Sequence record: ON528738
Length of the DNA: 64,000 nt
Origin: Shigella phage ESh28
Strand: one strand, 5' to 3'
Positions 6,653-64,000 of the stretch are shown piece after piece. The notes under the pieces are model-generated. The model had not been told where the DNA came from. It saw nothing but the letters and a program-made list of their open reading frames with translations, and made no database searches. Every line of letters starts with the position of its first letter. Positions within the stretch are counted from its first letter, which is position 1. Made by a program: the position numbers and the translations under genes.

Positions 6653-8746
6653 ATGGAACTCATTACAGAATTATTTGACGAAGATACTACTCTTCCGATT
6701 ACAAACTTAAATCCAAAGAAGAAAATACCACAAATTTTTTCAGTTCATGTTGATGACGCAATTGAACAACCAGGCTTTCGTTTATGTACCTATACATCTG
6801 GAGGTGATACTAATCGCGATTTAAAGATGGGCGATAAAATGATGCATATTGTTCCTTTTACATTAACTGCTAAAGGTTCAATTGCTAAATTAAAAGGTCT
6901 TGGTCCAAGCCCAATTAATTATATCAATTCAGTTTTTACTGTTGCAATGCAAACAATGCGCCAGTATAAAATTGATGCTTGTATGCTTCGTATTCTTAAG
7001 TCTAAAACTGCTGGCCAAGCTCGACAAATTCAAGTTATTGCTGATAGACTTATCCGTAGTCGTTCAGGTGGCAGATACGTCCTTCTTAAGGAACTCTGGG
7101 ATTATGATAAAAAGTATGCATATATTCTTATACATCGCAAAAATGTATCACTAGAAGACATTCCAGGAGTTCCGGAAATTAGTACCGAGCTCTTTACTAA
7201 AGTTGAATCGAAGGTCGGTGATGTTTATATCAATAAAGATACTGGGGCTCAAGTAACTAAAAATGAGGCAATTGCAGCATCTATTGCACAAGAAAATGAT
7301 AAACGTTCTGACCAAGCTGTAATCGTTAAAGTTAAAATTTCACGTAGAGCAATTGCGCAAAGTCAATCATTGGAATCTTCTAGATTTGAAAGTGAATTAT
7401 TCCAGAAGTATGAATCTACCGCAGCTAATTTCAATAAACCTGCTACAGCTCCTTTAATTCCTGAAGCAGAAGAAATGAAGCTTGGAATTAATTCATTAGC
7501 TTCTAAAACTAAGGCAGCAAAAATTATTGCTGAAGGAACTGCAGATGAACTTCATTATGACTATAAATTCTTTTCAAAAAGTGAGGTTAATGAAGTTTCT
7601 GAAAAAATTAAAGATGTAATTCTTAATGCGATTAAAAATGAACCAACTACTTCAATAAAATGTTTAGAGAAATACGCAGCAGCTGTTAATCAATTATTTG
7701 AAGAATATAAAGATAACTGGCTTGATAAACATAATAAAACTCGTAAAGGACAGACAGATGAAGTCTGGGAAGAAATAACTAAAAATTCCTGGAACGCAGC
7801 AAAAACTAAATTCCTCAAACGAATGATTTATAGCTTTTCTGGAATTGGTGCAGGTCCAATGATTGATATTACTATTGCCCGTGATGGTTCTAAATATACT
7901 CCATCACAAAAGCGCGGCATTAGAGAGTATTGTGGTTCAGGATATACTGACATCAATAATCTTCTTTTAGGACGCTACAATCCAGAACGATATGATGTAA
8001 TGAGTGAAAAAGAAATTGAATCTGCTATAAATAACTTAGATTCAGCTTTTGAAAATGGTGACCGTATACCAGAAGGCATTACAGTTTATCGTGCTCAAAG
8101 TATGACTGCTCCTATATATGAAGCGTTAGTTAAAAATAAAGTGTTCTACTTCAGAAATTTTGTATCTACTTCTTTAACTCCTATCATTTTTGGACGTTTT
8201 GGAATCACACATGCTGGTATTGGTCTTTTAGAACCAGAAGCTCGCAATGAATTAACAGTTGATAAAAATGAAGAAGGAATAACTATTAATCCAAACGAAA
8301 TAAGAGCGTATAAAGAAAATCCTGAATACGTTAAAGTTCAAATAGGATGGGCAATTGATGGAGCTCATAAAGTTAATGTTGTATATCCAGGAAGTCTCGG
8401 AATAGCAACAGAAGCTGAAGTTATTCTACCGCGTGGATTGATGGTCAAAGTTAATAAAATAACTGATGCTTCTAATAATGACGGAACAACATCTAATAAT
8501 ACAAAACTCATTCAAGCTGAAGTTATGACCACGGAAGAGCTCACCGAATCGGTAATCTATGACGGAGACCATTTAATGGAAACCGGTGAAGTAGTTGCAA
8601 TGACAGGTGATATTGAAATAGACGACAGAGTTGACTTTGCATCATTTGTTTCATCAAATGTTAAACAGAAAGTAGAATCATCTCTTGGAATTATTGCGTC
8701 TTGCATAGATATTACAAACATGCCTTACAAGTTCGTTCAAGGATAA
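6653..8746 (+). CDS. alt: Alt ADP-ribosyltransferase (capsid-packaged), copy 1
   Basis: MELITELFDEDTTLPITNL... matches recalled T4 Alt; YRAQ / FVSTSL / EAEVILPRG (R-S-ExE ART motifs); ATG 6650 also possible. Confidence 0.9.
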   Translation: MELITELFDEDTTLPITNLNPKKKIPQIFSVHVDDAIEQPGFRLCTYTSGGDTNRDLKMGDKMMHIVPFTLTAKGSIAKLKGLGPSPINYINSVFTVAMQTMRQYKIDACMLRILKSKTAGQARQIQVIADRLIRSRSGGRYVLLKELWDYDKKYAYILIHRKNVSLEDIPGVPEISTELFTKVESKVGDVYINKDTGAQVTKNEAIAASIAQENDKRSDQAVIVKVKISRRAIAQSQSLESSRFESELFQKYESTAANFNKPATAPLIPEAEEMKLGINSLASKTKAAKIIAEGTADELHYDYKFFSKSEVNEVSEKIKDVILNAIKNEPTTSIKCLEKYAAAVNQLFEEYKDNWLDKHNKTRKGQTDEVWEEITKNSWNAAKTKFLKRMIYSFSGIGAGPMIDITIARDGSKYTPSQKRGIREYCGSGYTDINNLLLGRYNPERYDVMSEKEIESAINNLDSAFENGDRIPEGITVYRAQSMTAPIYEALVKNKVFYFRNFVSTSLTPIIFGRFGITHAGIGLLEPEARNELTVDKNEEGITINPNEIRAYKENPEYVKVQIGWAIDGAHKVNVVYPGSLGIATEAEVILPRGLMVKVNKITDASNNDGTTSNNTKLIQAEVMTTEELTESVIYDGDHLMETGEVVAMTGDIEIDDRVDFASFVSSNVKQKVESSLGIIASCIDITNMPYKFVQG

Positions 8747-11195: not shown

Positions 11196-12152
11196 TCCTA
11201 ATATTTTACTTTGCGAGTTGACAATTCCTGTCATAGTATTAATATTTGAAATGCTTCCTGCAGTTCCCCCTAATCTACTAAGTCGTGAAAGCGAATTAGA
11301 TAGTCCAGTAACACCTCCACTATTTCCGAGAACGCTTTGAATACCATTTATAGTAGCAGATTCAAGCCATTCAAGGGCAGCTTGTCTATCAACTGCTCCA
11401 GCCTGCATGACTCTATAAGCGAAAGTAACATCAAATGTAGTTATTTGGTTATCTCCATCATATGATAACTCAGGAGCACTCACAGATATTGGAATACAGC
11501 CAGTGAACATCACCGCAGTATGTGGTAATCCATTGCGAGAATGAAGATTAACCTGAATATCTGCCTCGACATCTTGTGGTAAAGCACGCAATCCAGTTAC
11601 TGGGTCTTGAACAGCGTTAACCCAGTCTTGCATTGCACGATAGTTACAAGCTTCTGAATCCATTCTAAATGAAATAACCAAAGGGTCTAATTCTCTCCCA
11701 GTTATACGAATATTAGGAGAGTTGTAGTTCCAGTCAGTTTCATAGGATAATCTATTCTCTGGCATTTTTACAGAGTATATCATCAATCCAGATGAGTTAT
11801 ATGCCATGTTAAAGAAGTCAATTAAATATGTACCAACTGTAAATGAGCCTAATAAACTTTGAACTGTACGTTGACTCATGGCACCAATAAGATATTTACT
11901 AACCCCTGATTTTCTTATCAGTTTTTGTGTGCCAGCTGTAATTAGCGTGGTAATTCCCTGATTAATATCACCTTGAGTTAATCCTAGCCAATCTGAACTT
12001 AGGCCCAAGTTATTATAAGAAAAGTTGCTAATTGAACTTATCAACGAAGAGCTTTTAGTTGATGGAGTTGTTGCAAAAACGCAGCTAAACATATTATTAC
12101 GTTGGAAATCTGCGTTTATTGCTTGATTATTAAATTCCTCTAAAGAATACAT
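11187..12152 (-). CDS. 54: baseplate tail tube initiator gp54
   Basis: 321-aa ORF, length and gene order as T4 gene 54; ATG verified. Confidence 0.8.
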   Translation of the reverse strand: MYSLEEFNNQAINADFQRNNMFSCVFATTPSTKSSSLISSISNFSYNNLGLSSDWLGLTQGDINQGITTLITAGTQKLIRKSGVSKYLIGAMSQRTVQSLLGSFTVGTYLIDFFNMAYNSSGLMIYSVKMPENRLSYETDWNYNSPNIRITGRELDPLVISFRMDSEACNYRAMQDWVNAVQDPVTGLRALPQDVEADIQVNLHSRNGLPHTAVMFTGCIPISVSAPELSYDGDNQITTFDVTFAYRVMQAGAVDRQAALEWLESATINGIQSVLGNSGGVTGLSNSLSRLSRLGGTAGSISNINTMTGIVNSQSKILGAI

Positions 12153-21224: not shown

Positions 21225-21253
21225 GTCTAAATACCATGTAATAAATATATCTA

Positions 21254-21964: not shown

Positions 21965-23383
21965 ATGACTTTTACAGTTGATATAACTCCTAAAACACCA
22001 ACGGGGGTTATTGATGAAACCAAGCAGTTTACTGCTGCACCCAGTGGTCAAACTGAAGGTGGAACTATTACCTATGCTTGGAGTGTAGATAATGTTCCAC
22101 AGGATGGAGCTGAAGCAACCTTTAATTATGTATTAAAAGGACCTGCTGGTCAAAAGACTATTAAAGTGGTTGCAACAAATACAGTTCCAGAAGCTGAAGC
22201 TGAAACAGCTGAAATTAGTACAACTATCACAGTTCAAAATAAGACACAGACAACTACCTTAGCTGTAACTCCTAATAGTCCTCCAGAAGGAGTAATCGGA
22301 ACAGCTGTTGAATTTACTGCTGCTTTAGCTTCGCAGCCATCGGGCGCAACTGCTACGTATCAATGGTACGTTGACGATTCTCCTGTGGGCGAAGCAACTT
22401 CTGCTACATTCAATTATACTCCTACTACAAGCGGAGTTAAAAAAATTAAGTGTGTAGCTCAAGTAACTGCTGATGATTATAATGCACTGAGCGTTACTTC
22501 TAATGAAGTATCATTGACGGTTAATAAAAAGACGCAGACAACTACATTGGCAGTAACTCCTGCTAGTCCTTCAGCTGGAGTAATTGGAACCCCAGTTCAA
22601 TTTACTGCTGCCTTAGCTTCTCAACCGTCTGGAGCGTCTGCTACGTATCAATGGTATGTAGATGACTCTCAAGTTAGTGGAGAAACTAACTCTACATTTA
22701 ACTATACTCCAACTACAAATGGAGTCAAAAGAATTAAATGCGTAGCCCAAGTAACTGCTGATGATTATAATGCAAAAGAAGTTACTTCCAATGAAGTATC
22801 ATTGACAGTTAATAAGAAGACAATGAATCCACAGGTTACATTGACTCCTCCTTCTATTAATGTTCAGCAAGATGCTTCGGCTACATTTACGGCTAATGTT
22901 ACGGATGCTCCAGAAGAAGCACAAATTACTTACTCGTGGAAGAAAGATTCTTCTCCTGTAGAAGGGTCAACTAACGTATATACTGTCGATACCTCATCTG
23001 TTGGAAGTCAAACTATTGAAGTTACTGCTGTCGTTGCAGCAACTGATTATGATAGCAAAACAGTTAAAACAACAGGTCAAGTTCAAGTGACTGATAAAGT
23101 TGCTCCTGAACCAGAAGGTGAATTACCTTATGTTCATCCTCTTCCACATCGTACTTCAGCTTACATCTGGTGCGGTTGGTGGGTTATGGATGAAATCCAA
23201 AAAATGACTGAAGAAGGTAAAGATTGGAAAACTGAAGATCCAGATAGTAAGTACTACTTGCATCGTTACACTCTTCAGAAGATGATGAAAGATTATCCAG
23301 AAGTTGATGTCCAAGAATCGCGTAATGGATACATCATTCACAAAACTGCTTTAGAAACTGGTATCATCTATACCTATCCATAA
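21965..23383 (+). CDS. hoc: Hoc, highly immunogenic outer capsid protein, with extra Ig-like domain
   Basis: N-terminus MTFTVDITPKTPTGVIDETKQF and C-terminus ...IIHKTALETGIIYTYP match recalled T4 Hoc; 472 aa versus 376 aa in T4. Confidence 0.85.
   Translation: MTFTVDITPKTPTGVIDETKQFTAAPSGQTEGGTITYAWSVDNVPQDGAEATFNYVLKGPAGQKTIKVVATNTVPEAEAETAEISTTITVQNKTQTTTLAVTPNSPPEGVIGTAVEFTAALASQPSGATATYQWYVDDSPVGEATSATFNYTPTTSGVKKIKCVAQVTADDYNALSVTSNEVSLTVNKKTQTTTLAVTPASPSAGVIGTPVQFTAALASQPSGASATYQWYVDDSQVSGETNSTFNYTPTTNGVKRIKCVAQVTADDYNAKEVTSNEVSLTVNKKTMNPQVTLTPPSINVQQDASATFTANVTDAPEEAQITYSWKKDSSPVEGSTNVYTVDTSSVGSQTIEVTAVVAATDYDSKTVKTTGQVQVTDKVAPEPEGELPYVHPLPHRTSAYIWCGWWVMDEIQKMTEEGKDWKTEDPDSKYYLHRYTLQKMMKDYPEVDVQESRNGYIIHKTALETGIIYTYP
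22241..22816 (+). repeat. in-frame tandem duplication, 2 x 288 bp (2 x 96 aa Ig-like domain) inside hoc
   Basis: units 22241-22528 and 22529-22816 encode KTQTTTLAVTP...SLTVNK twice with near-identical sequence. Confidence 0.85.
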
Positions 23384-27946: not shown

Positions 27947-28756
27947 TTAGAAACGAGATGCGACTTTCGCATATACACTTACAATATCTTCTGCACCAGG
28001 TGCAGCTTTATCTTCTACAGCTTCAGTGACGAAATTCAGTCCGGCTGCTTCAGTATCAGGAGTATTTATACCCTCAGTAATAGTGCTTTCATCTTTATTA
28101 GATTTCTTCACCATTTCTACGATTGCACTCAATTTACTTGAGAATGCATCTGAATAATCCATACCTTCGACCAGAGCAGAGACTTTTTCTTTTTGAGACT
28201 CAGTCAGATCTTTAGTACTTTCGCTCAATGCCACTTCACGCTGCACATAATTGATATATGCGTCGCGCATATTGAGTTCTTCGAACAGACGAGCTGATTC
28301 TTCTTTATGTTCTTGCAGCTCTTCTTCCATTTCAGCTACAACATCAACTGATTCTTCTGGAACAACAACGTTGTGTTCAACAAAGAGCTCTTTTAATCCA
28401 CCAAGCATGGATTCAAACAGTTCGGCTTTGATACCTTTATCAACTGCTAATTTATTTTCAGCGAGCCATTCTTTCGCAAGATGGTCAATGAATTTAGAAG
28501 CTTGCTCAGCGATTTTCTTCTCAGCTTTTTCTTCGGCTTCTTCTTTATTTTTTTCTACTTCTTCTTCTGCTTTTTCAGCAATTTTAGCGATATGAGATTC
28601 AGCTAATTTAACGGCGTGCTGCTTGACGGTAGCTTCGAATACAGTGCCGAAAGTTTCTTTTGCTTCCGGAGAAATATTAACTGATTCGAAAATACTATCA
28701 AGAGCAACGGAAGCATCAATTTTCTGCGCTTCGGCAATCAGTTGTTCTTTAAGCAT
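27947..28756 (-). CDS. 22: prohead core scaffold protein gp22
   Basis: 269 aa equals T4 gp22; acidic coiled-coil composition. Confidence 0.85.
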   Translation of the reverse strand: MLKEQLIAEAQKIDASVALDSIFESVNISPEAKETFGTVFEATVKQHAVKLAESHIAKIAEKAEEEVEKNKEEAEEKAEKKIAEQASKFIDHLAKEWLAENKLAVDKGIKAELFESMLGGLKELFVEHNVVVPEESVDVVAEMEEELQEHKEESARLFEELNMRDAYINYVQREVALSESTKDLTESQKEKVSALVEGMDYSDAFSSKLSAIVEMVKKSNKDESTITEGINTPDTEAAGLNFVTEAVEDKAAPGAEDIVSVYAKVASRF

Positions 28757-28783: not shown

Positions 28784-28791
28784 TATTTATA
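28784..28791 (-). promoter_or_regulatory. late promoter TATAAATA for gene 22
   Basis: TATTTATA on plus strand, overlaps 3' end of gene 21. Confidence 0.65.
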
Positions 28792-29425
28792 ACGCTTTTT
28801 TCATGGCCTCTGCGAGAGCCATATAGGCGTCATCGGCACTTGTATCGGCTTCCGCCGTCTGTGATTCGGTAATTTCCTTAGGAGTTACCCATGCATCTGG
28901 AGCACTTGGACCCCATACTGCATCAACACCTACAGTTAATTTGAATCCTTCGTTTACGATACGATAACCTTTATTTGTGTCAGTCAATGAACCTAATCCA
29001 CGAGAAGAAACTCCTGGAATCCATCCGGCACGAATATTAGCTGCTAATTTATCTCCAGGACCATGGTCACCTTCAATAACACGAGCTCGTCCGTATACGT
29101 CATTTCCTTTCCACCACATATCTTCTATAATGATAGCGGCTTGCATCGGGTCAACATTAGCGCGTGGAGGATGATTTAATTCTCCGAGAGCTTGTTTAGT
29201 TAAAACTTGCTCATTAATATAGTCTTTTACCGCTTTTTCTAATATACGTTTTGGATAAAGACGTTTATTTCTATTGACGACTTCCGCTTGCATGAATATT
29301 CCTTCGATGTATAAACCCGGTTTTAAACCTAAGTCTTTTCCATCATGAGATTCAAGCATTGGCACGCCATCAATAATTTCGCCAGGTTGACCCCAAGTTT
29401 CAATTAGTAATTGGGGTTCATTCAT
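28787..29425 (-). CDS. 21: prohead core protease gp21
   Basis: 212 aa equals T4 gp21. Confidence 0.9.
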   Translation of the reverse strand: MNEPQLLIETWGQPGEIIDGVPMLESHDGKDLGLKPGLYIEGIFMQAEVVNRNKRLYPKRILEKAVKDYINEQVLTKQALGELNHPPRANVDPMQAAIIIEDMWWKGNDVYGRARVIEGDHGPGDKLAANIRAGWIPGVSSRGLGSLTDTNKGYRIVNEGFKLTVGVDAVWGPSAPDAWVTPKEITESQTAEADTSADDAYMALAEAMKKAL

Positions 29426-58408: not shown

Positions 58409-58666
58409 ATGAAAACTTTCAAAGAGTTTGCTACAAAAACTACTATTACTGAATCTTCCCACGGTATGGAAGTAAAGCTTGGAATGGCTTTAGCTGAAGC
58501 TGAGCGTCTTTTCTCTCGTATTAAAGAACTTGCTGCTGCAGTCGATCCTTCGTCTTTTAAAGGAGACCAAACTAAAGTTAAAGCGCTTTTAGCATTATGC
58601 TCCGATGCGGGAGAAATCGCTAAAAATGGTTCTAAGATGAAGAAACGATTAGAAGATTTAAAATAA
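58409..58666 (+). CDS. internal-protein-like (IPI-type) capsid-injected protein with N-terminal capsid-targeting sequence
   Basis: 85 aa starting MKTFKEFATK...ITE, resembling the T4 IP targeting signal MKTYQEFIAE; position next to 57B as T4 ipI. Confidence 0.5.
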   Translation: MKTFKEFATKTTITESSHGMEVKLGMALAEAERLFSRIKELAAAVDPSSFKGDQTKVKALLALCSDAGEIAKNGSKMKKRLEDLK

Positions 58667-58922: not shown

Positions 58923-59327
58923 ATGAATATTAACGAATATTATGTTTATGCTGGGGATTATGCAAATCCTTCTCATTTTGAAGGTAATTTAATACCTGAT
59001 AGAGTTTTTAATACTCCTTTTGAAGCGTGGAGTTGGGTTGAAAGTAAAAATGGATTTTCTTACCGTTATGTTGAAGTAACTGATTGGAAAGGAACTAAAT
59101 ATCCTAAAGAGCATTATTATATAGACCCATCTAAAGTAAATTTTCTTTTGTTCGCAGGCGATAATTACTATCCTTGCGGTGGATATGATGATTTGATTGC
59201 GTATGCTGAAACAGAAGATGAATTACGCCAAATTATTGAAGACAATAAATCAAAACGATTTGGCGATAGTTTCGACTGGTGGCAAATTGTAAATGCCAAT
59301 ACGCACACTATTGTCGATAAAGGTTAA
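58923..59327 (+). CDS. hypothetical protein
   Basis: 134-aa ATG ORF coupled to upstream stop. Confidence 0.5.
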   Translation: MNINEYYVYAGDYANPSHFEGNLIPDRVFNTPFEAWSWVESKNGFSYRYVEVTDWKGTKYPKEHYYIDPSKVNFLLFAGDNYYPCGGYDDLIAYAETEDELRQIIEDNKSKRFGDSFDWWQIVNANTHTIVDKG

Positions 59328-59329
59328 TA

Positions 59330-59620
59330 ATGATTCTTTATGCGAAAGTATCATCTATTGAAAATGGATATAAATATGATCAAGAAGCAGCTAAAGCCTT
59401 GATTGATGATTATGGCATTTTAACATATTTTGAAGTTGAAAAGGTTTACATTGACCGTTCATCTTCTCAAGTTAAATTAGTGAAGGAAGACAGTAAATTT
59501 AATACAGTAAATTTTGATTTCTTTATTGAAACAGAAAAAGGTCCTCTTGAATATGATATTTTCAAGAATCCTTTGGGTCTTGAATGTATTAAATATACTT
59601 ACATTAATGCAGCGTGGTGA
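59330..59620 (+). CDS. hypothetical protein
   Basis: 96-aa ATG ORF. Confidence 0.5.
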   Translation: MILYAKVSSIENGYKYDQEAAKALIDDYGILTYFEVEKVYIDRSSSQVKLVKEDSKFNTVNFDFFIETEKGPLEYDIFKNPLGLECIKYTYINAAW

Positions 59621-59622
59621 AA

Positions 59623-60138
59623 ATGAATATTTGTTTAGGTACTACAATTCCGCAGGGCTACGTAATTGATGTCACTACCTGGGAAAATGATGGTGACAAC
59701 TATAAAACCAAAACATTGTTTGGCGTAGAAGAGCATGAAATCTTACAATTTCAGTATCTTTTAAAGAAGTTTAAAAGCAGATATTCTAGTACTAAAATTG
59801 AGCGCTATTGTGGTAATGGTTTGTTCAGCGAGCAATCTCTTTTTATTTATGAATACTTGGTTGAAGGACTGTTCTCAGATCAGCTTTATCCAGAATTCAT
59901 TAAAAAGGTCTTTCGCATAGAAGTTGACCTTGGTAATAAATCTGAAGAAGATGAAGAACGTGTATTTGACTTATTCTTTGTGAATGGTAATAAAGTGCTT
60001 GAAGGACTTATTAATATTTTAGGTAATGCTTCTGAGTATTATGATTATGATTTTTTGCGTGTAGTTGAGAGTGTTAAATACTCTTATATAGAAGAAGAAA
60101 TTGTTTTGCCGACCGTTAAAATGTTTAATTTGCTTTAA
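59623..60138 (+). CDS. hypothetical protein
   Basis: track ORF starts at GTG 59614; first ATG 59623; about 171 aa. Confidence 0.5.
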   Translation: MNICLGTTIPQGYVIDVTTWENDGDNYKTKTLFGVEEHEILQFQYLLKKFKSRYSSTKIERYCGNGLFSEQSLFIYEYLVEGLFSDQLYPEFIKKVFRIEVDLGNKSEEDEERVFDLFFVNGNKVLEGLINILGNASEYYDYDFLRVVESVKYSYIEEEIVLPTVKMFNLL

Positions 60139-60155
60139 GAATTATTTGTTATTAT
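60131..60155 (+). promoter_or_regulatory. middle-type promoter (MotA box TGCTTTA, -10 TATTAT) upstream of tRNA cluster
   Basis: 28-bp block identical to the gene 31 promoter at 589-616. Confidence 0.5.
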
Positions 60156-60224
60156 TAACTCATATCGCACTGATTAATACCCTCTATCATCAAGGGTTCT
60201 TGCTTAAGAGCCTTTGTTAATAAT

Positions 60225-60297
60225 TGGGAATTAGCCAAGTTGGTAAGGCATAGCACTTTGACTGCTAGATGCAAAGGTTCGAGTCCTTTATTCCCAG
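60225..60297 (+). tRNA. tRNA-Gln (anticodon UUG)
   Basis: cloverleaf folded by eye: acceptor TGGGAAT/ATTCCCA, anticodon loop CTTTGAC, T-arm GGTTCGAGTCC. Confidence 0.85.
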
Positions 60298-60298
60298 C

Positions 60299-60385
60299 GC
60301 GAGAATGGTCAAATTGGTAAAGGCACAGCACTTAAAATGCTGCGGAATGATTTCCTTGTGGGTTCGAGTCCCACTTCTCGCACCA
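60299..60385 (+). tRNA. tRNA-Leu (anticodon UAA), type II with long variable arm
   Basis: acceptor GCGAGAA/TTCTCGC, anticodon loop CTTAAAA, T-arm GGTTCGAGTCC, CCA encoded. Confidence 0.85.
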
Positions 60386-60390
60386 AATTT

Positions 60391-60464
<74 letters not shown>

Positions 60465-60474
60465 ATTTAATTTA

Positions 60475-60548
60475 CTCCGTGTAGCTCAGTTTGGTAGAGC
60501 GTCTGCTTTGGGAGCAGAATGTCGCAGGTTCAAATCCTGCCGTGGAGA
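60475..60548 (+). tRNA. tRNA-Pro (anticodon UGG)
   Basis: D-arm GCTCAGTTTGGTAGAGC, anticodon stem-loop TCTGC-TTTGGGA-GCAGA, T-arm GCAGGTTCAAATCCTGC. Confidence 0.8.
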
Positions 60549-60550
60549 CT

Positions 60551-60640
60551 GGAGGCGTGGCAGAGTGGTTTAATGCACCGGTCTTGAAAACCGGCAGTCG
60601 CTCCGGCGACTCATAGGTTCAAATCCTATCGCCTCCGCCA
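60551..60640 (+). tRNA. tRNA-Ser (anticodon UGA), type II
   Basis: acceptor GGAGGCG/CGCCTCC, anticodon loop CTTGAAA, long variable arm, T-arm GGTTCAAATCC, CCA encoded. Confidence 0.85.
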
Positions 60641-60645
60641 GTTTT

Positions 60646-60721
60646 GCTGATTTAGCTCAGTAGGTAGAGCAACTCACTTGTAATGAGAAGGTCGGCGGTT
60701 CGATTCCGTCAATCAGCACCA
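60646..60721 (+). tRNA. tRNA-Thr (anticodon UGU)
   Basis: acceptor GCTGATT/AATCAGC, anticodon loop CTTGTAA, T-arm GGTTCGATTCC, CCA encoded. Confidence 0.85.
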
Positions 60722-60722
60722 A

Positions 60723-60797
60723 GGCCCTGTAGCTGGAAGGTTCAAGCAAGCGACTCATAATCGCCAGATGGTGGTTCAATTCCACCCAGGGCCACCA
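60723..60797 (+). tRNA. tRNA with CAU anticodon (Ile2-type by analogy with T4 tRNA-Ile, or Met)
   Basis: acceptor GGCCCTG/CAGGGCC, anticodon loop CTCATAA, T-arm GGTGGTTCAATTCCACC, CCA encoded. Confidence 0.75.
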
Positions 60798-60809
60798 AAT
60801 TATGAATTA

Positions 60810-60896
60810 GGGGAGTTATCCCGTAGAGGTAGCGGTGTGGACTGTAAATCCATTGTCATTGCGACTCGGGTGGTTCGACTCCATCACTCCCCACCA
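60810..60896 (+). tRNA. tRNA-Tyr (anticodon GUA), type II
   Basis: acceptor GGGGAGT/ACTCCCC, anticodon stem-loop TGGA-CTGTAAA-TCCA, long variable arm, T-arm GGTGGTTCGACTCCATC, CCA encoded. Confidence 0.7.
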
Positions 60897-60900
60897 ATTT

Positions 60901-60975
60901 GGATGTGTAGCTCAATGGCAGAGCGATCGCCTGTTAAGCGATTGGTTATAGGTTCGAATCCTATCACGTCCGCCA
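60901..60975 (+). tRNA. tRNA-Asn (anticodon GUU)
   Basis: acceptor GGATGTG/CACGTCC, D-arm GCTCAATGGCAGAGC, anticodon loop CTGTTAA, T-arm ATAGGTTCGAATCCTAT, CCA encoded. Confidence 0.8.
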
Positions 60976-60979
60976 AATC

Positions 60980-61055
60980 CGAGGCATAGCTCAGAAGGAA
61001 GAGCAAGGACCTTCTAAGTCCTAGGTCGTAGGTTCGATCCCTACTGCCTCGACCA
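60980..61055 (+). tRNA. tRNA-Arg (anticodon UCU)
   Basis: acceptor CGAGGCA/TGCCTCG, D-arm GCTCAGAAGGAAGAGC, anticodon loop CTTCTAA, T-arm GTAGGTTCGATCCCTAC, CCA encoded. Confidence 0.85.
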
Positions 61056-61371
61056 GACAAGAAGCCGGGTCGCTACCGGCAAGTCGTCGGACTGATGTTC
61101 CCTGGGTAAGGACTGGCATTAACAAATCTTTACGATCGGTTAATGCCCCCTTACATCACAGCAGAAACGGCGCACCGAATTATCGATTCGAGGAAATATC
61201 TTTGCCGTAAGCCGAGTAGCGTTTTTGACGGAACGTTCGGATATGGTCGAGATATGGCCTTTTAAAAATATTGAGTAGCGTCAACTACTTAATAACCGGG
61301 TTCGAATCCCGGCGTTTCGTACAAACACTTGCCTTAGCAGGTGGAACCCCGACAAGGTTGCCGCAAGGCTT
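61056..61371 (+). ncRNA. putative stable small RNA(s) downstream of tRNA-Arg (T4 species 1/2 RNA-like), with tRNA-like T-arm
   Basis: about 320 nt without convincing ORF; hairpins GCCGG...CCGGC (61063-61080), GGCATTAAC...GTTAATGCC (61115-61147), T-arm-like CCGGG-TTCGAAT-CCCGG (61296-61312); ends at the strong terminator. Confidence 0.35.
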
Positions 61372-61400
61372 AGCCCCGACCGAAAGGTTGGGGCTTTTTA
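61372..61400 (+). terminator. rho-independent terminator (AGCCCCGACC-GAAA-GGTTGGGGCT + TTTTT)
   Basis: 10-bp stem, GAAA loop, T5 tail. Confidence 0.8.
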
Positions 61401-61489
61401 GTTTGAATCGCATAGAGAATGCTGTTACGGATAATAACAAAGTAATAAATAATTAATAACCAACCGATAAATTATTTCAAGGATTTTAA

Positions 61490-62053
61490 ATGAAAACCTA
61501 TGCCGAATTTTTAACCGAAGCAGCAAAATTACCATCTGAAGCAGATCTTACTAAAGTATTCTTCCAATTGGACCCAAAAGACCGTGGCGATTTTCTTAAG
61601 TGGAAAGCTAAAGCTATTGAAATGTATAACATCGATAATAGTTCTTTTACGATGAGTCAAGAAAATAAATTCAATAAAGCATTTTTCAAAATTTCTAAGA
61701 AACTGGCATCAGGCGCTCAGGTTCCTAAATCTGCCTTAGCTACTCCTGAACGCGCACCCGTCAAAATTTCTAAGAATATGTTTGACACTAAAAAATATGT
61801 TAATGCTTTGAATAAAGCTCTTGATGCATTGGATGATGCAAAGAAGGCAGCCCGCGATCTTCAAGACGTGTACACCGATTTTGATCGTAAAACTAAAGGT
61901 TCTATTTCAAATAGTGAACGCAATAGTGTAAGTGTTTATTCAGATAGCCTTGATGTTCTTGGCGATGCGTATACTGAAATTAAAAATCGTATTAACACTG
62001 CATCTAAGCTAAAAGCTGCTGCCGAAGCTATAATAACTAAACTGGGTAAATAA
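61490..62053 (+). CDS. internal-protein-like (IPIII-type) capsid-injected protein with capsid-targeting sequence
   Basis: 187 aa starting MKTYAEFLTE-AAK, a near-consensus T4 IP targeting/cleavage signal; Lys/Ala-rich; SD AAGGA. Confidence 0.55.
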   Translation: MKTYAEFLTEAAKLPSEADLTKVFFQLDPKDRGDFLKWKAKAIEMYNIDNSSFTMSQENKFNKAFFKISKKLASGAQVPKSALATPERAPVKISKNMFDTKKYVNALNKALDALDDAKKAARDLQDVYTDFDRKTKGSISNSERNSVSVYSDSLDVLGDAYTEIKNRINTASKLKAAAEAIITKLGK

Positions 62054-62057
62054 TTTT

Positions 62058-62086
62058 AAATCCCTATCTAAATGATAGGGATTTTT
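62058..62086 (+). terminator. terminator hairpin AAATCCCTATC-TAAAT-GATAGGGATTT + TT
   Basis: 11-bp stem directly after IPIII-like stop. Confidence 0.55.
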
Positions 62087-62222
62087 GGTATCTAGGCCTT
62101 TCCAGGCCTCTCTAGACATCATTTAGTTTCTACCCTTTATAATATATTATCCTATCCTTTGATTTCCCCTCTCTGCCCTAGAATTCCCCAAAACCTTTAA
62201 AATTTTTTTTTTTCACAAAACT

Positions 62223-62252
62223 GTTTACAAGACTGTTCTTCCATGGTACTAT
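62223..62252 (+). promoter_or_regulatory. early-type promoter with upstream A/T tract (-35 GTTTAC, -10 TGgTACTAT)
   Basis: GTTTAC 62223-62228, TACTAT 62247-62252, T11 run at 62204-62214. Confidence 0.55.
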
Positions 62253-62295
62253 ACAACTATCAACTACTGATACAGAAAACAACTTGGAGAATGAA

Positions 62296-62559
62296 ATGGA
62301 TAATTACGGCGAACTGTTCAACTTCTTTATGAAATGTGTTTCAGAAGATTTCGGTCGTACGGTGAATGATATTAAAGTTATCGGTCCTGATCATCCAATG
62401 TTTGAAACTTACGCAGTAATGGGTAATGAAGACGGTCAGTGGTATACTGTAAAGGTTGTGATTAACATGTTCACTGCTGAAGGTTATGTTAAACTGTCTT
62501 CTAAAGTTTACCATGATAACGACGAAATCGCAGAAGAATATTTCAATAATATGAAATAA
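62296..62559 (+). CDS. hypothetical protein
   Basis: track ORF starts at TTG 62284, which lies in SD GGAGA; ATG at 62296 gives 87 aa. Confidence 0.5.
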   Translation: MDNYGELFNFFMKCVSEDFGRTVNDIKVIGPDHPMFETYAVMGNEDGQWYTVKVVINMFTAEGYVKLSSKVYHDNDEIAEEYFNNMK

Positions 62560-62661
62560 GTTTGCATAGGCTCATGATTGAGATATTATGAGCCTATAAT
62601 TTGATGATAGAATATAATAATTTTTACAGATTTTAAATCTTAATCAACCTAAGGAAATACT

Positions 62662-63255
62662 ATGAACACACTGAAGAAAATTGTTGAGTTTATTCGCACT
62701 AAACTTGGTTCTGCTATGGCTAAAAATCTATCTGTTGAAGAACAGTATACTGCTGCGGCAGCAAAACTACTTGATAAAATTAAAGACCTAAAAACTGCTT
62801 CTGTTAAATCTATTAATGAAGAAAAACGTATTCGTGAACTTATTGTCGAAAAGAATAAGCAGGCCGAATCAAAAGAGCGTGAAATTCGCAAGCTTCTTTC
62901 CGAAGGTCAAGATGTAACAATGCATGCTAAACTCGGTTTACTATATCGTCGAACAGCTGAGCAGTTGACTACTAAGGCTGACGGTTATGCTGAAATGCGA
63001 ATTGAAATCGCCAAGAAAGTAGTTGAGTTAGATGATGCTCGTCAAGAACTTGCGGTTAAATTGGAATATATCCGTGAAACTCGTGCAGCAAATGCCCTTG
63101 GAATTAGTACTGCTGATGATGTAGTTGAAATTGCAGCACTGACTAAGGTTGATATTGAAGATACCCTTGCTCGAGTTGAAACCTTTAACGGTAATATTTC
63201 TGGGGTTGAAACTACCTCTGCCGATGTTCAGGAATACATTAATTCTCTGAAATAA
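62662..63255 (+). CDS. hypothetical coiled-coil protein
   Basis: 197 aa, Lys/Glu/Ala-rich heptad-like composition; SD AAGGA. Confidence 0.5.
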
Positions 63256-63259
63256 TGAT

Positions 63260-63277
63260 AAGGGGCTTCGGCCCCTT
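63260..63277 (+). terminator. GC hairpin AAGGGGC-TTCG-GCCCCTT
   Basis: 7-bp stem with UUCG loop, weak T tail. Confidence 0.4.
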
Positions 63278-63296
63278 ATACTTGGAGTAAATAGGA

Positions 63297-63911
63297 ATGA
63301 AAATGAAAATGCAAAGTGATTTCAATTCAATGTTTGAAGAGTTCCAAAGACAGGTTGATGTTCCAGACCAATTACTAAATGCTCTTAAACGCATGGCAGA
63401 AGGACGTAATTACTATTGGGGGTCTTCATATGAAACTGATGAAAGCCTTTCCGGAAGATTTTCTAGAGGTAAAAAGTCTTTAATACGTCCTGGAATACTC
63501 ATTAACAGTATTGAATCAATTCATTCATTGACGTGTGATTTTGATGTTGAATTTACTGATTTCATTTCTCCTGAATGGACGGTTTGTTATTTAAACGACG
63601 ATTATGATTATCTTGGCGTTTATAGTTTAAGTGATGCATGGTTTAAACGTAATTTACAAAAATCAAATTTATTTTATATTGATACTACGGTAAAATTTCA
63701 GGGAAAGAAATATTTCTTTACTCTTATAGTTGACTCTGAAACAAAATATGAAAATAAGCGTATTCTTAGTAAAAAGAATATCTTAACTATTGTTGATGAT
63801 CTTTTTGATAAATTCGTAGAAAATCCCAATTTTGAAAGCGATTTATTATTAGAAAAATTTGTTAAGGAATGTAGAGAATATGTCAAAGCCATCACTATAC
63901 CTTCCAAGTAA
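63297..63911 (+). CDS. hypothetical protein
   Basis: 204-aa ATG ORF. Confidence 0.5.
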   Translation: MKMKMQSDFNSMFEEFQRQVDVPDQLLNALKRMAEGRNYYWGSSYETDESLSGRFSRGKKSLIRPGILINSIESIHSLTCDFDVEFTDFISPEWTVCYLNDDYDYLGVYSLSDAWFKRNLQKSNLFYIDTTVKFQGKKYFFTLIVDSETKYENKRILSKKNILTIVDDLFDKFVENPNFESDLLLEKFVKECREYVKAITIPSK

Positions 63912-64000
63912 ACCTGTGAAGTATGAACCAAAGCGTCAGCTAATTTCTACTGATGTGTTAATAGGTCCTGTGGTAGTTGTATCATTTGTGATTCTATTGA

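Follow-up and report, generated by a model that had tools for sequence, protein, structure and literature searches.

The T-even phages carry polymorphic internal proteins (Ip1, Ip2, Ip4-Ip12 and others; see Repoila et al. 1994 and Comeau et al. 2007), which are unrelated to one another, small and basic, and are united by a short leader. They have been described as diverse defence proteins with only the targeting sequence in common (Rao and Black, PMC3012670). The first 10 residues of IPIII suffice for head incorporation, and mutagenesis of IPIII has placed the targeting information at residues 4 and 7 and the processing information at residues 8 and 10 (PMC9026906, a review of Black's work); in T4 the 10-residue tag alone packages foreign proteins (PMC3012670, PMC9026906). 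A distinct GmrSD is inhibited by each of Ip1 (GmrSD of CT596), Ip2 (GmrSD/BrxU of ECOR21) and Ip3 (the GmrS1/GmrSD2 pair, ECOR17) (PMC12373910). Moreover, the tag-bearing protein Bas37_0260, which was found by the transposon screen HIDEN-SEQ as conditionally required on K-12, inhibits McrBC (Humolli et al. 2025, bioRxiv 10.1101/2025.11.20.689424). In the literature the genes are assigned to 'two Ip loci', one beside 57B and the other beside e (PMC2839356). We hereby analyze an open reading frame (ORF) of Shigella phage ESh28, named here ORF187 after the length of its product and located in a stretch of 64,000 nucleotides (sequence record ON528738; the whole stretch is called the window). ORF187 is probably an unrecognised T-even internal protein, which would be packaged, cut by the protease gp21 and injected, most likely with an anti-defence role.

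ORF187 starts with ATG and occupies positions 61490..62053 on the + strand, where the sequence-only reading of this DNA had placed it. Its product of 187 residues begins with MKTYAEFLTEAAKLPSEADL (over a longer N-terminal stretch, MKTYAEFLTEAAK), and a Shine-Dalgarno sequence, AAGGA (61479..61483, +), is read 6 nt before the ATG. Codons 1-10 (61490..61519, +) encode MKTYAEFLTE, a putative capsid-targeting sequence that ends in the gp21 motif L-T-E/A. The same reading had given MKTYQEFIAE/A as the T4 signal and had called the ORF187 start almost identical to it. Both statements hold: ipI, ipII and ipIII of T4 were translated from NC_000866, giving MKTYQEFIAE/AS... for ipIII and MKTYQEFIAE/AR... 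for ipII, and the leader of ORF187, MKTYAEFLTE/AAK, is identical to this sequence at 8 of 10 positions, with the four critical ones kept. In fact, the targeting positions Y4 and F7 are the same residues in IPII and IPIII, and the processing positions are L8 and E10 (I8 and E10 in IPIII), which places the cleavage site at L8-T9-E10/A11. The gp21 motif is (L/I)xE, in which L and I are interchangeable.

Several further observations point in the same direction. The product of ORF187 contains a single [LIV]xE site, at E10, likewise IPII and IPIII contain one each, and E10 is invariant in an alignment of 12 family sequences that includes relatives down to 19% identity. Among the ORFs of the window (at least 60 residues) only two start with MK[TS][YF]x[EQ]F, namely ORF187 and the Ip5 gene at 58409, whereas 0.0004 such ORFs would be expected by chance per window. 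The phage also encodes the T4-type machinery on which the leader is expected to act: gp21, the prohead protease expected to remove the leader (28790..29425, -), is 99.5% identical to T4 gp21 over 212 residues; gp22, the scaffolding core protein thought to be bound by the leader (27950..28756, -), is 98.9% identical to its T4 counterpart over 269 residues; and gp67 and gp68 are 100% identical in the aligned parts (all by tblastn). By every criterion that can be tested on sequence, the first residues of ORF187 are thus supported as a good capsid-targeting and gp21-cleavage signal, and packaging into the head, which the sequence-only reading had considered very likely, is probable. Removal of the leader after E10 would give a mature protein that starts at Ala11 with AAKLPSEADLTK and has 177 residues (61520..62053, +, stop codon included), a mass of 19.6 kDa, an isoelectric point (pI) of 9.54 and a net charge of +9.

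The mechanism that we propose follows the precedent of the class. The gene would be transcribed late, from its own promoter, in a cassette closed by a terminator at each side; the 10-residue leader would let the precursor enter the prohead's gp22/gp21 scaffolding core, where gp21 would cut after Glu10 (L-T-E/A); the basic, all-helical mature protein of 177 residues would stay in the head with the DNA and be injected together with it. We infer packaging, cleavage and injection, as well as the target, from these features of the gene and of its relatives. In the new host the protein would most likely disarm a first-line defence, and by analogy with the class its likely target would be a nuclease attacking modified T-even DNA, of type IV and of the GmrSD or McrBC kind. 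An anti-defence role is the most probable one by analogy, because the four characterised tag-bearing internal proteins all inhibit type IV restriction, and ORF187 shares with the class the leader, the gp21 motif, the presence of T4-type gp21 and gp22 in the phage and a small, basic, Lys/Ala-rich body. A close instance is Bas37_0260, which has the tag (MKTYQEFIAE/TADV...) and is encoded by the same phage as an ORF187 ortholog that is 98.9% identical; it differs in having 77 residues, in lying at the ipI locus and in being needed only when McrBC is present.

The body of the protein resembles that of IPIII in chemistry. T4 IPIII (NP_049735) and the product of ORF187 are alike in leader, cleavage position, length (193 and 187 residues), pI (9.54 and 9.43), number of Lys plus Arg (34 and 33) and of Asp plus Glu (25 in both), and the contents of Lys (14.4%) and Ala (12.8%) in ORF187 are similar in IPIII. 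These values bear out the earlier description of a Lys/Ala-rich body lacking a recognisable domain, as searches of Pfam and NCBIfam returned no family above threshold. Only one family, PHROG 2280, labelled 'unknown function', is matched (E = 2.8e-53): residues 1-181 align with positions 1-178 of the 178 in its profile, and a sequence-profile search of the PDB gave nothing below E = 0.15. In the alignment with T4 IPII and IPIII, which had been proposed as a check, the leader matched and homology of the body was not found: BLASTP aligned residues 1-12 (identity at 8 of 12) and nothing beyond, and a comparison of the family profile with IPIII by hhalign reached 19% probability, over the leader only. 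Common ancestry of the body with IPIII or IPII was therefore rejected, and the term 'IPIII-like', used in the sequence-only reading, holds for the leader and the bulk chemistry and not for ancestry. The two genes differ also in their surroundings, because ipIII adjoins e and has an early promoter and a stem-loop upstream.

An AlphaFold2 model built with the 12-sequence family alignment (predicted local distance difference test, pLDDT, 78) predicts a helical N-terminal domain at residues ~17-73, a disordered Pro/Ala/Lys linker at ~74-98 and a C-terminal helical hairpin or bundle at ~101-186. The two-domain layout is confirmed by the copy of Shigella phage CT01 (401-889 of its stretch), in which an in-frame deletion, located between KISK repeats, cleanly removes linker residues 67-91. 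Fold searches with the model retrieved generic coiled-coil hairpins only.

The gene is contained in a cassette of 687 bp (61400..62086, +), composed of a promoter motif, the ribosome-binding site, the ORF and a terminator, which T4 does not have. In fact, positions 61010-61402 and 62062-62598 of the window are contiguous in T4 according to BLASTN and MAFFT. In T4 the hairpin downstream of rnaC and its TTTTT run directly into GGTATCTAAGCC; in the window the T-run of the rnaC terminator is followed immediately by the insert, which ends with a hairpin and TTTTT of its own, and these by GGTATCTAGGCC. The left boundary is thus an intrinsic terminator (hairpin and T-run) 3' of the rnaC homologue (61372..61399, +; predicted RNA fold of -20.4 kcal/mol, z = -3.8), and the right boundary is a second terminator of the same build (62058..62086, +; -15.7 kcal/mol, z = -4.5, with 0 of 200 shuffles folding as well), both found by a terminator scan. 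The cassette is ~94-96% identical in RB14, RB69 and Bas35/37/46.

A putative promoter is found in the 90-nt spacer upstream of the ORF. It is the octamer AATAAATA (61444..61451, +), which matches the T4 late promoter TATAAATA at 7 of 8 positions and lies 38 nt before the ATG. This variant is under-represented in the window (6 copies observed, 14 expected) and the T4 late promoter itself is enriched (23 observed, 14 expected). Three of the six copies are found at 21240 (+), 37555 (-) and 61444 (+). The first two precede inh and gene 15, both late virion genes, by 27 nt and 35 nt, and the third precedes ORF187 by 38 nt, which suggests that the octamer is a variant late promoter. Distant homologues of ORF187 have GATAAATA at a similar distance upstream. 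Late-only, insulated expression of ORF187 is a reasonable inference from this arrangement.

The interval between rnaC and e.8 is found in four states. It is empty in T4; it holds only a gene of 157 codons in fD1, only the 187-residue gene in this window and in RB14, and both genes in Bas37 and sb3. The shorter gene (bas37_0244, fD1 g140, RB32ORF132c) encodes a paralog of 157 residues that starts with MKSYTQFLNE/A and belongs to PHROG 2280 (E = 2e-60). In Bas37 it lies immediately upstream of the 187-residue gene (902-1375 of the Bas37 stretch compared): the rnaC hairpin occurs there twice, around the extra gene, and the cassette of the longer gene then follows. In fD1 it occupies 7943-8416 (-) of the stretch compared. 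The paralog, which is absent from the window, was found in 512 phage records, against 164 for ORF187. It resembles ORF187 in the type of leader, in the helical N-terminal part, the Pro/Ala/Lys linker and the helical C-terminal part, in the locus and in the repeated terminator; it differs in that the two proteins are only ~28% identical, that it tolerates transposons at 29 of 34 TA sites and that it has been detected in phage particles, where liquid chromatography-tandem mass spectrometry scored g140 as particle-associated in fD1 virions.

This organization recalls the modular shuffling of the hyperplastic regions of T4-type phages (PMC2839356), with the difference that the repeat found here is a terminator and not an early-promoter stem-loop. 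Classical ip cassettes are likewise shuffled and variably present, and they are bounded by regulatory stem-loops, whereas the ORF187 family has duplicated terminators. Variable presence of this kind, with the locus empty or occupied by one or both genes and with near-identical copies across Tequatrovirus and Mosigvirus, is typical of anti-defence cassettes. The rnaC-e.8 interval would be a third internal-protein locus, and the most fitting place for ORF187 is within the known polymorphic class of T-even internal proteins, as a new and so far unnamed member that shares the third cassette locus with a paralog.

In the sequence searches the family is confined to T4-like phages. By tblastn the ORF187 protein is present in 164 phage records at an identity of at least 95%; the carriers are phages of Escherichia, Shigella, Yersinia, Salmonella and Citrobacter, belonging to Tequatrovirus and Mosigvirus, and among the matches listed the copies are annotated as 'hypothetical protein', as 'Phage protein' or not at all. 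An exhaustive HMMER scan of 1.84 billion representatives gave 6 matches only. The distant homologues among them, of ~204-213 residues, for example P0013 and gp254 of Kanagawavirus CIP9 (208 residues), keep the N-terminal domain and the leader (MITFNEFLNE/S, MLNFNEFLLE/S) and are located downstream of a tRNA cluster. Some copies are disrupted. In RB69 a 1-nt deletion at codon 122 (~11615-11625 of its stretch) splits the homologue into RB69ORF149c and RB69ORF148c, the ORF is also split in OE5505 and G29, and it is truncated in ZJUN4; for all four a sequencing error is possible. In phage F26 the 3' end of the gene is partly duplicated in tandem (401-1314 of its stretch).

Some observations weigh against an internal-protein identity and have to be considered together. 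The gene lies between rnaC and e.8 and not in the 57B-tRNA.4 or e-denV interval. T4 ipI, ipII and ipIII and the Ip5 gene of the window are each located behind an early promoter of the form GTTTAC...TAnnnT, with an obvious inverted repeat also at the promoters of ipIII and ipII; in the region upstream of ORF187 neither a GTTTAC-type early promoter nor an inverted repeat was found. The annotation of RB14 names Ip4, Ip5 and ipI and leaves the ORF187 homologue, RB14ncORF136c, as 'hypothetical'. The ORF187 protein is not mentioned in the literature that was searched, which comprised searches with the leader string, proteome reports, the fPS-65/fPS-90 paper and the supplements of Silas 2025. The predicted fold points to no target and speaks neither for nor against an anti-defence role, and the particle proteome of fD1, in which the paralog was scored, is a permissive one that scored 113-137 of the 277 gene products. 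Finally, the ortholog of ORF187 in Bas37 is called 'Essential' on K-12, a host on which the T4 ip genes are freely disrupted, and this would not be expected of an anti-restriction passenger that the phage can spare. As to the first two points, the habit of the class of occupying two ip loci with an early promoter and a stem-loop is a habitual feature and not a functional definition.

The transposon result deserves a closer description. The ortholog, bas37_0243, is encoded at 141028-141591 of Bas37 (Escherichia phage KarlGJung, MZ501089). In HIDEN-SEQ, insertions were recovered at 1 of its 48 TA sites, against 42 of 46 for T4 ipIII, and it is the only gene called 'Essential' among those listed from bas37_0236 to 0245 and from 0256 to 0263; T4 ipI, ipII and ipIII are all non-essential in the same screen (bioRxiv 10.1101/2025.11.20.689424, Extended Data Table 7 for bas37_0243). 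The gene is depleted already in the reference library, the selection host, DH-E03-226, is a restriction-deleted MG1655, and the main text of the preprint is silent on bas37_0243 (bioRxiv 10.1101/2025.11.20.689424). An artefact in which a promoterless marker fails to be expressed from a late-only cassette was considered and rejected: the transposon has its own strong sigma-70 promoter, BBa_J23119, and no terminator, so that marker expression cannot explain the call, and the late gene soc tolerates insertions too. Nor are polar effects a likely cause, as insertions are tolerated in the flanking genes 0242, 0244 and 0245. The screen has, on the other hand, acknowledged false essentials, in which known dispensable T4 genes were called essential (bioRxiv 10.1101/2025.11.20.689424); three of these belong to the late, virion-associated class of accessory genes, as ORF187 would, and the call may therefore be specific to the method. 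It may also reflect a deletion in the Bas37 working stock, and the disrupted copies of RB69 and a few other phages, with the reservation on sequencing already made, argue against universal essentiality.

A different precedent is offered by dmd of T4, which is essential in the map only because K-12 expresses RnlAB (bioRxiv 10.1101/2025.11.20.689424), and this makes the need to defeat a system encoded by K-12 a live reading for bas37_0243 as well. If the call is real, the protein would neutralise a still-unrecognised chromosomal defence of K-12 against T-even phages other than T4, acting even in a host deleted for McrA, McrBC, Mrr and EcoKI, or, alternatively, it would be a required head-core component in phages that lack IPII and IPIII. 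Either way, rnaC-e.8 would be a third locus of injected proteins. That this 187-residue PHROG 2280 protein is the first capsid-targeted, injected T-even protein to be indispensable on ordinary E. coli K-12 is, at present, a tentative idea that we consider doubtful.

The second of these possibilities leads to the explanation that survives best among those competing with the injected anti-defence protein, even if we hold it to be unlikely: ORF187 would be a packaged protein of the prohead core with a mainly structural or morphogenetic job, an analogue of IPIII that shapes the head with gp22 or neutralises the charge of the DNA, and it would be indispensable in phages without ipII, ipIII and Ip4, such as Bas37. 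Its size, pI, charge and Lys/Ala content are near those of IPIII, as given above, the e-denV interval of Bas37 is free of ip genes, and the solitary 'Essential' call counts in favour. In T4, moreover, mutants lacking IPIII or all three internal proteins make polyheads and the internal proteins co-purify with gp22, but the triple mutant was built and examined (PMC9026906). T4 itself, whose core genes are 99% identical to those of the window, does without ORF187, the disrupted or shortened copies speak against a structural need if they are not sequencing errors, and the screen that made the call returned dispensable T4 genes as essential. The triple mutant of T4 is reportedly viable. A simple substitution of one protein for the other was also rejected: IPIII, which tblastn finds in 261 records at a locus other than that of ORF187, co-occurs with it in at least six phages (Shfl2, ECML-134, P922, VIPECOOM03, PhAPEC2 and phiE142).

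It is more doubtful still that ORF187 encodes a late cytoplasmic protein that is never packaged and acts in the producing cell, its tag being a recombination relic from an ip gene or a convergent helix. The position outside the classical ip loci, the different promoter architecture and the lack of a virion report for the protein in the literature search would agree with this, and an essential phenotype fits an intracellular function more easily. A relic, however, would decay, and the leader, including E10, is kept in relatives whose bodies are only 19-30% identical. Since the tag alone is sufficient for packaging and gp21 and gp22 are 99% identical to those of T4, it is hard to see how the protein would escape being packaged, and the 157-residue paralog was detected in fD1 particles. 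The idea that ORF187 is no functional gene, but a chance ORF or a decaying pseudogene, could draw on the frameshifted and truncated copies of a few records and is nonetheless highly improbable, given a full-length ORF at least 95% identical in ~160 phage records of two genera, its own ribosome-binding site and terminator, the same architecture in distant homologues and the strong intolerance of transposons in Bas37.

The interest of an injected anti-defence protein at this locus comes from the class to which it would belong. Injected internal proteins act first in infection, and work since 2007, most of it from 2025, has identified every one examined as a specific inhibitor of a type IV restriction enzyme; as a consequence, the class can be regarded as a ready catalogue of probes for unknown host defences and of host-range determinants of therapeutic phages. 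The ORF187 family adds to it a locus that had not been listed, together with two cassettes that are paralogous to each other, occur in 164 and 512 phage records, respectively, and are unannotated among the matches listed, and it provides a definite candidate with which a target can be sought. It also illustrates that more members come to light when the leader is looked for beyond the two classical loci. If the essentiality in Bas37 is true, it would overturn the view of these proteins as dispensable on laboratory hosts and would point to a hidden defence of K-12 or to a structural role.

The rest of the window is that of a Tequatrovirus near RB14, pSs-1 and sb3. Positions 59000-64000 are matched over at least 80% of their length, at ~95-96% identity, by 217 phage records, and the gene order is that of RB14: 57B, Ip5, tRNA.4-tRNA.2, the tRNA cluster, ORF187, e.8, e.6 and e.5. 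At the classical ipI locus there is an Ip5-type internal protein (58409..58666, +) with the leader MKTFKEFATKTTITE/S, whose homologue in RB14 is annotated as Ip5 internal head protein; the GTTTAC early promoter region upstream of this gene is the same as that of T4 ipI. The tRNA cluster (60225-61055) is upstream of ORF187, as had been noted earlier from the letters alone, and homologues of rnaD and rnaC (61056 to ~61320) lie between the two; an Rfam scan of 60000-62400 returned tRNAs only, and the rnaC/rnaD region was left with no family match. The cluster comprises ten genes, among them those for Tyr and Asn, and the homing-endonuclease gene segB is missing; T4 has eight tRNAs, and in its cluster segB is inserted in front of tRNA-Arg. 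The tRNA with the CAT anticodon is called 'Met' by ARAGORN and is tRNA-Ile in the annotations of RB14 and T4.

Two other genes of the window gave minor observations. Downstream of ORF187, the e.6 homologue (62662-63255, +) has an ortholog, bas37_0240, whose HIDEN-SEQ insertions fall from 634.7 to 6.1 mean reads in one comparison with a clinical isolate (log2 fold change -6.49, q = 0); primers for a 0239/0240 knockout are listed and the main text of the preprint is silent on these two genes. The e.6 gene may thus be a conditionally required anti-defence gene. At a distance from this region, the homologue of Hoc (21965-23380, +) is aligned to T4 Hoc by tblastn in two overlapping segments, with 78% and 71% identity, and is apparently longer than the T4 protein, which suggests an extra Ig-like repeat.

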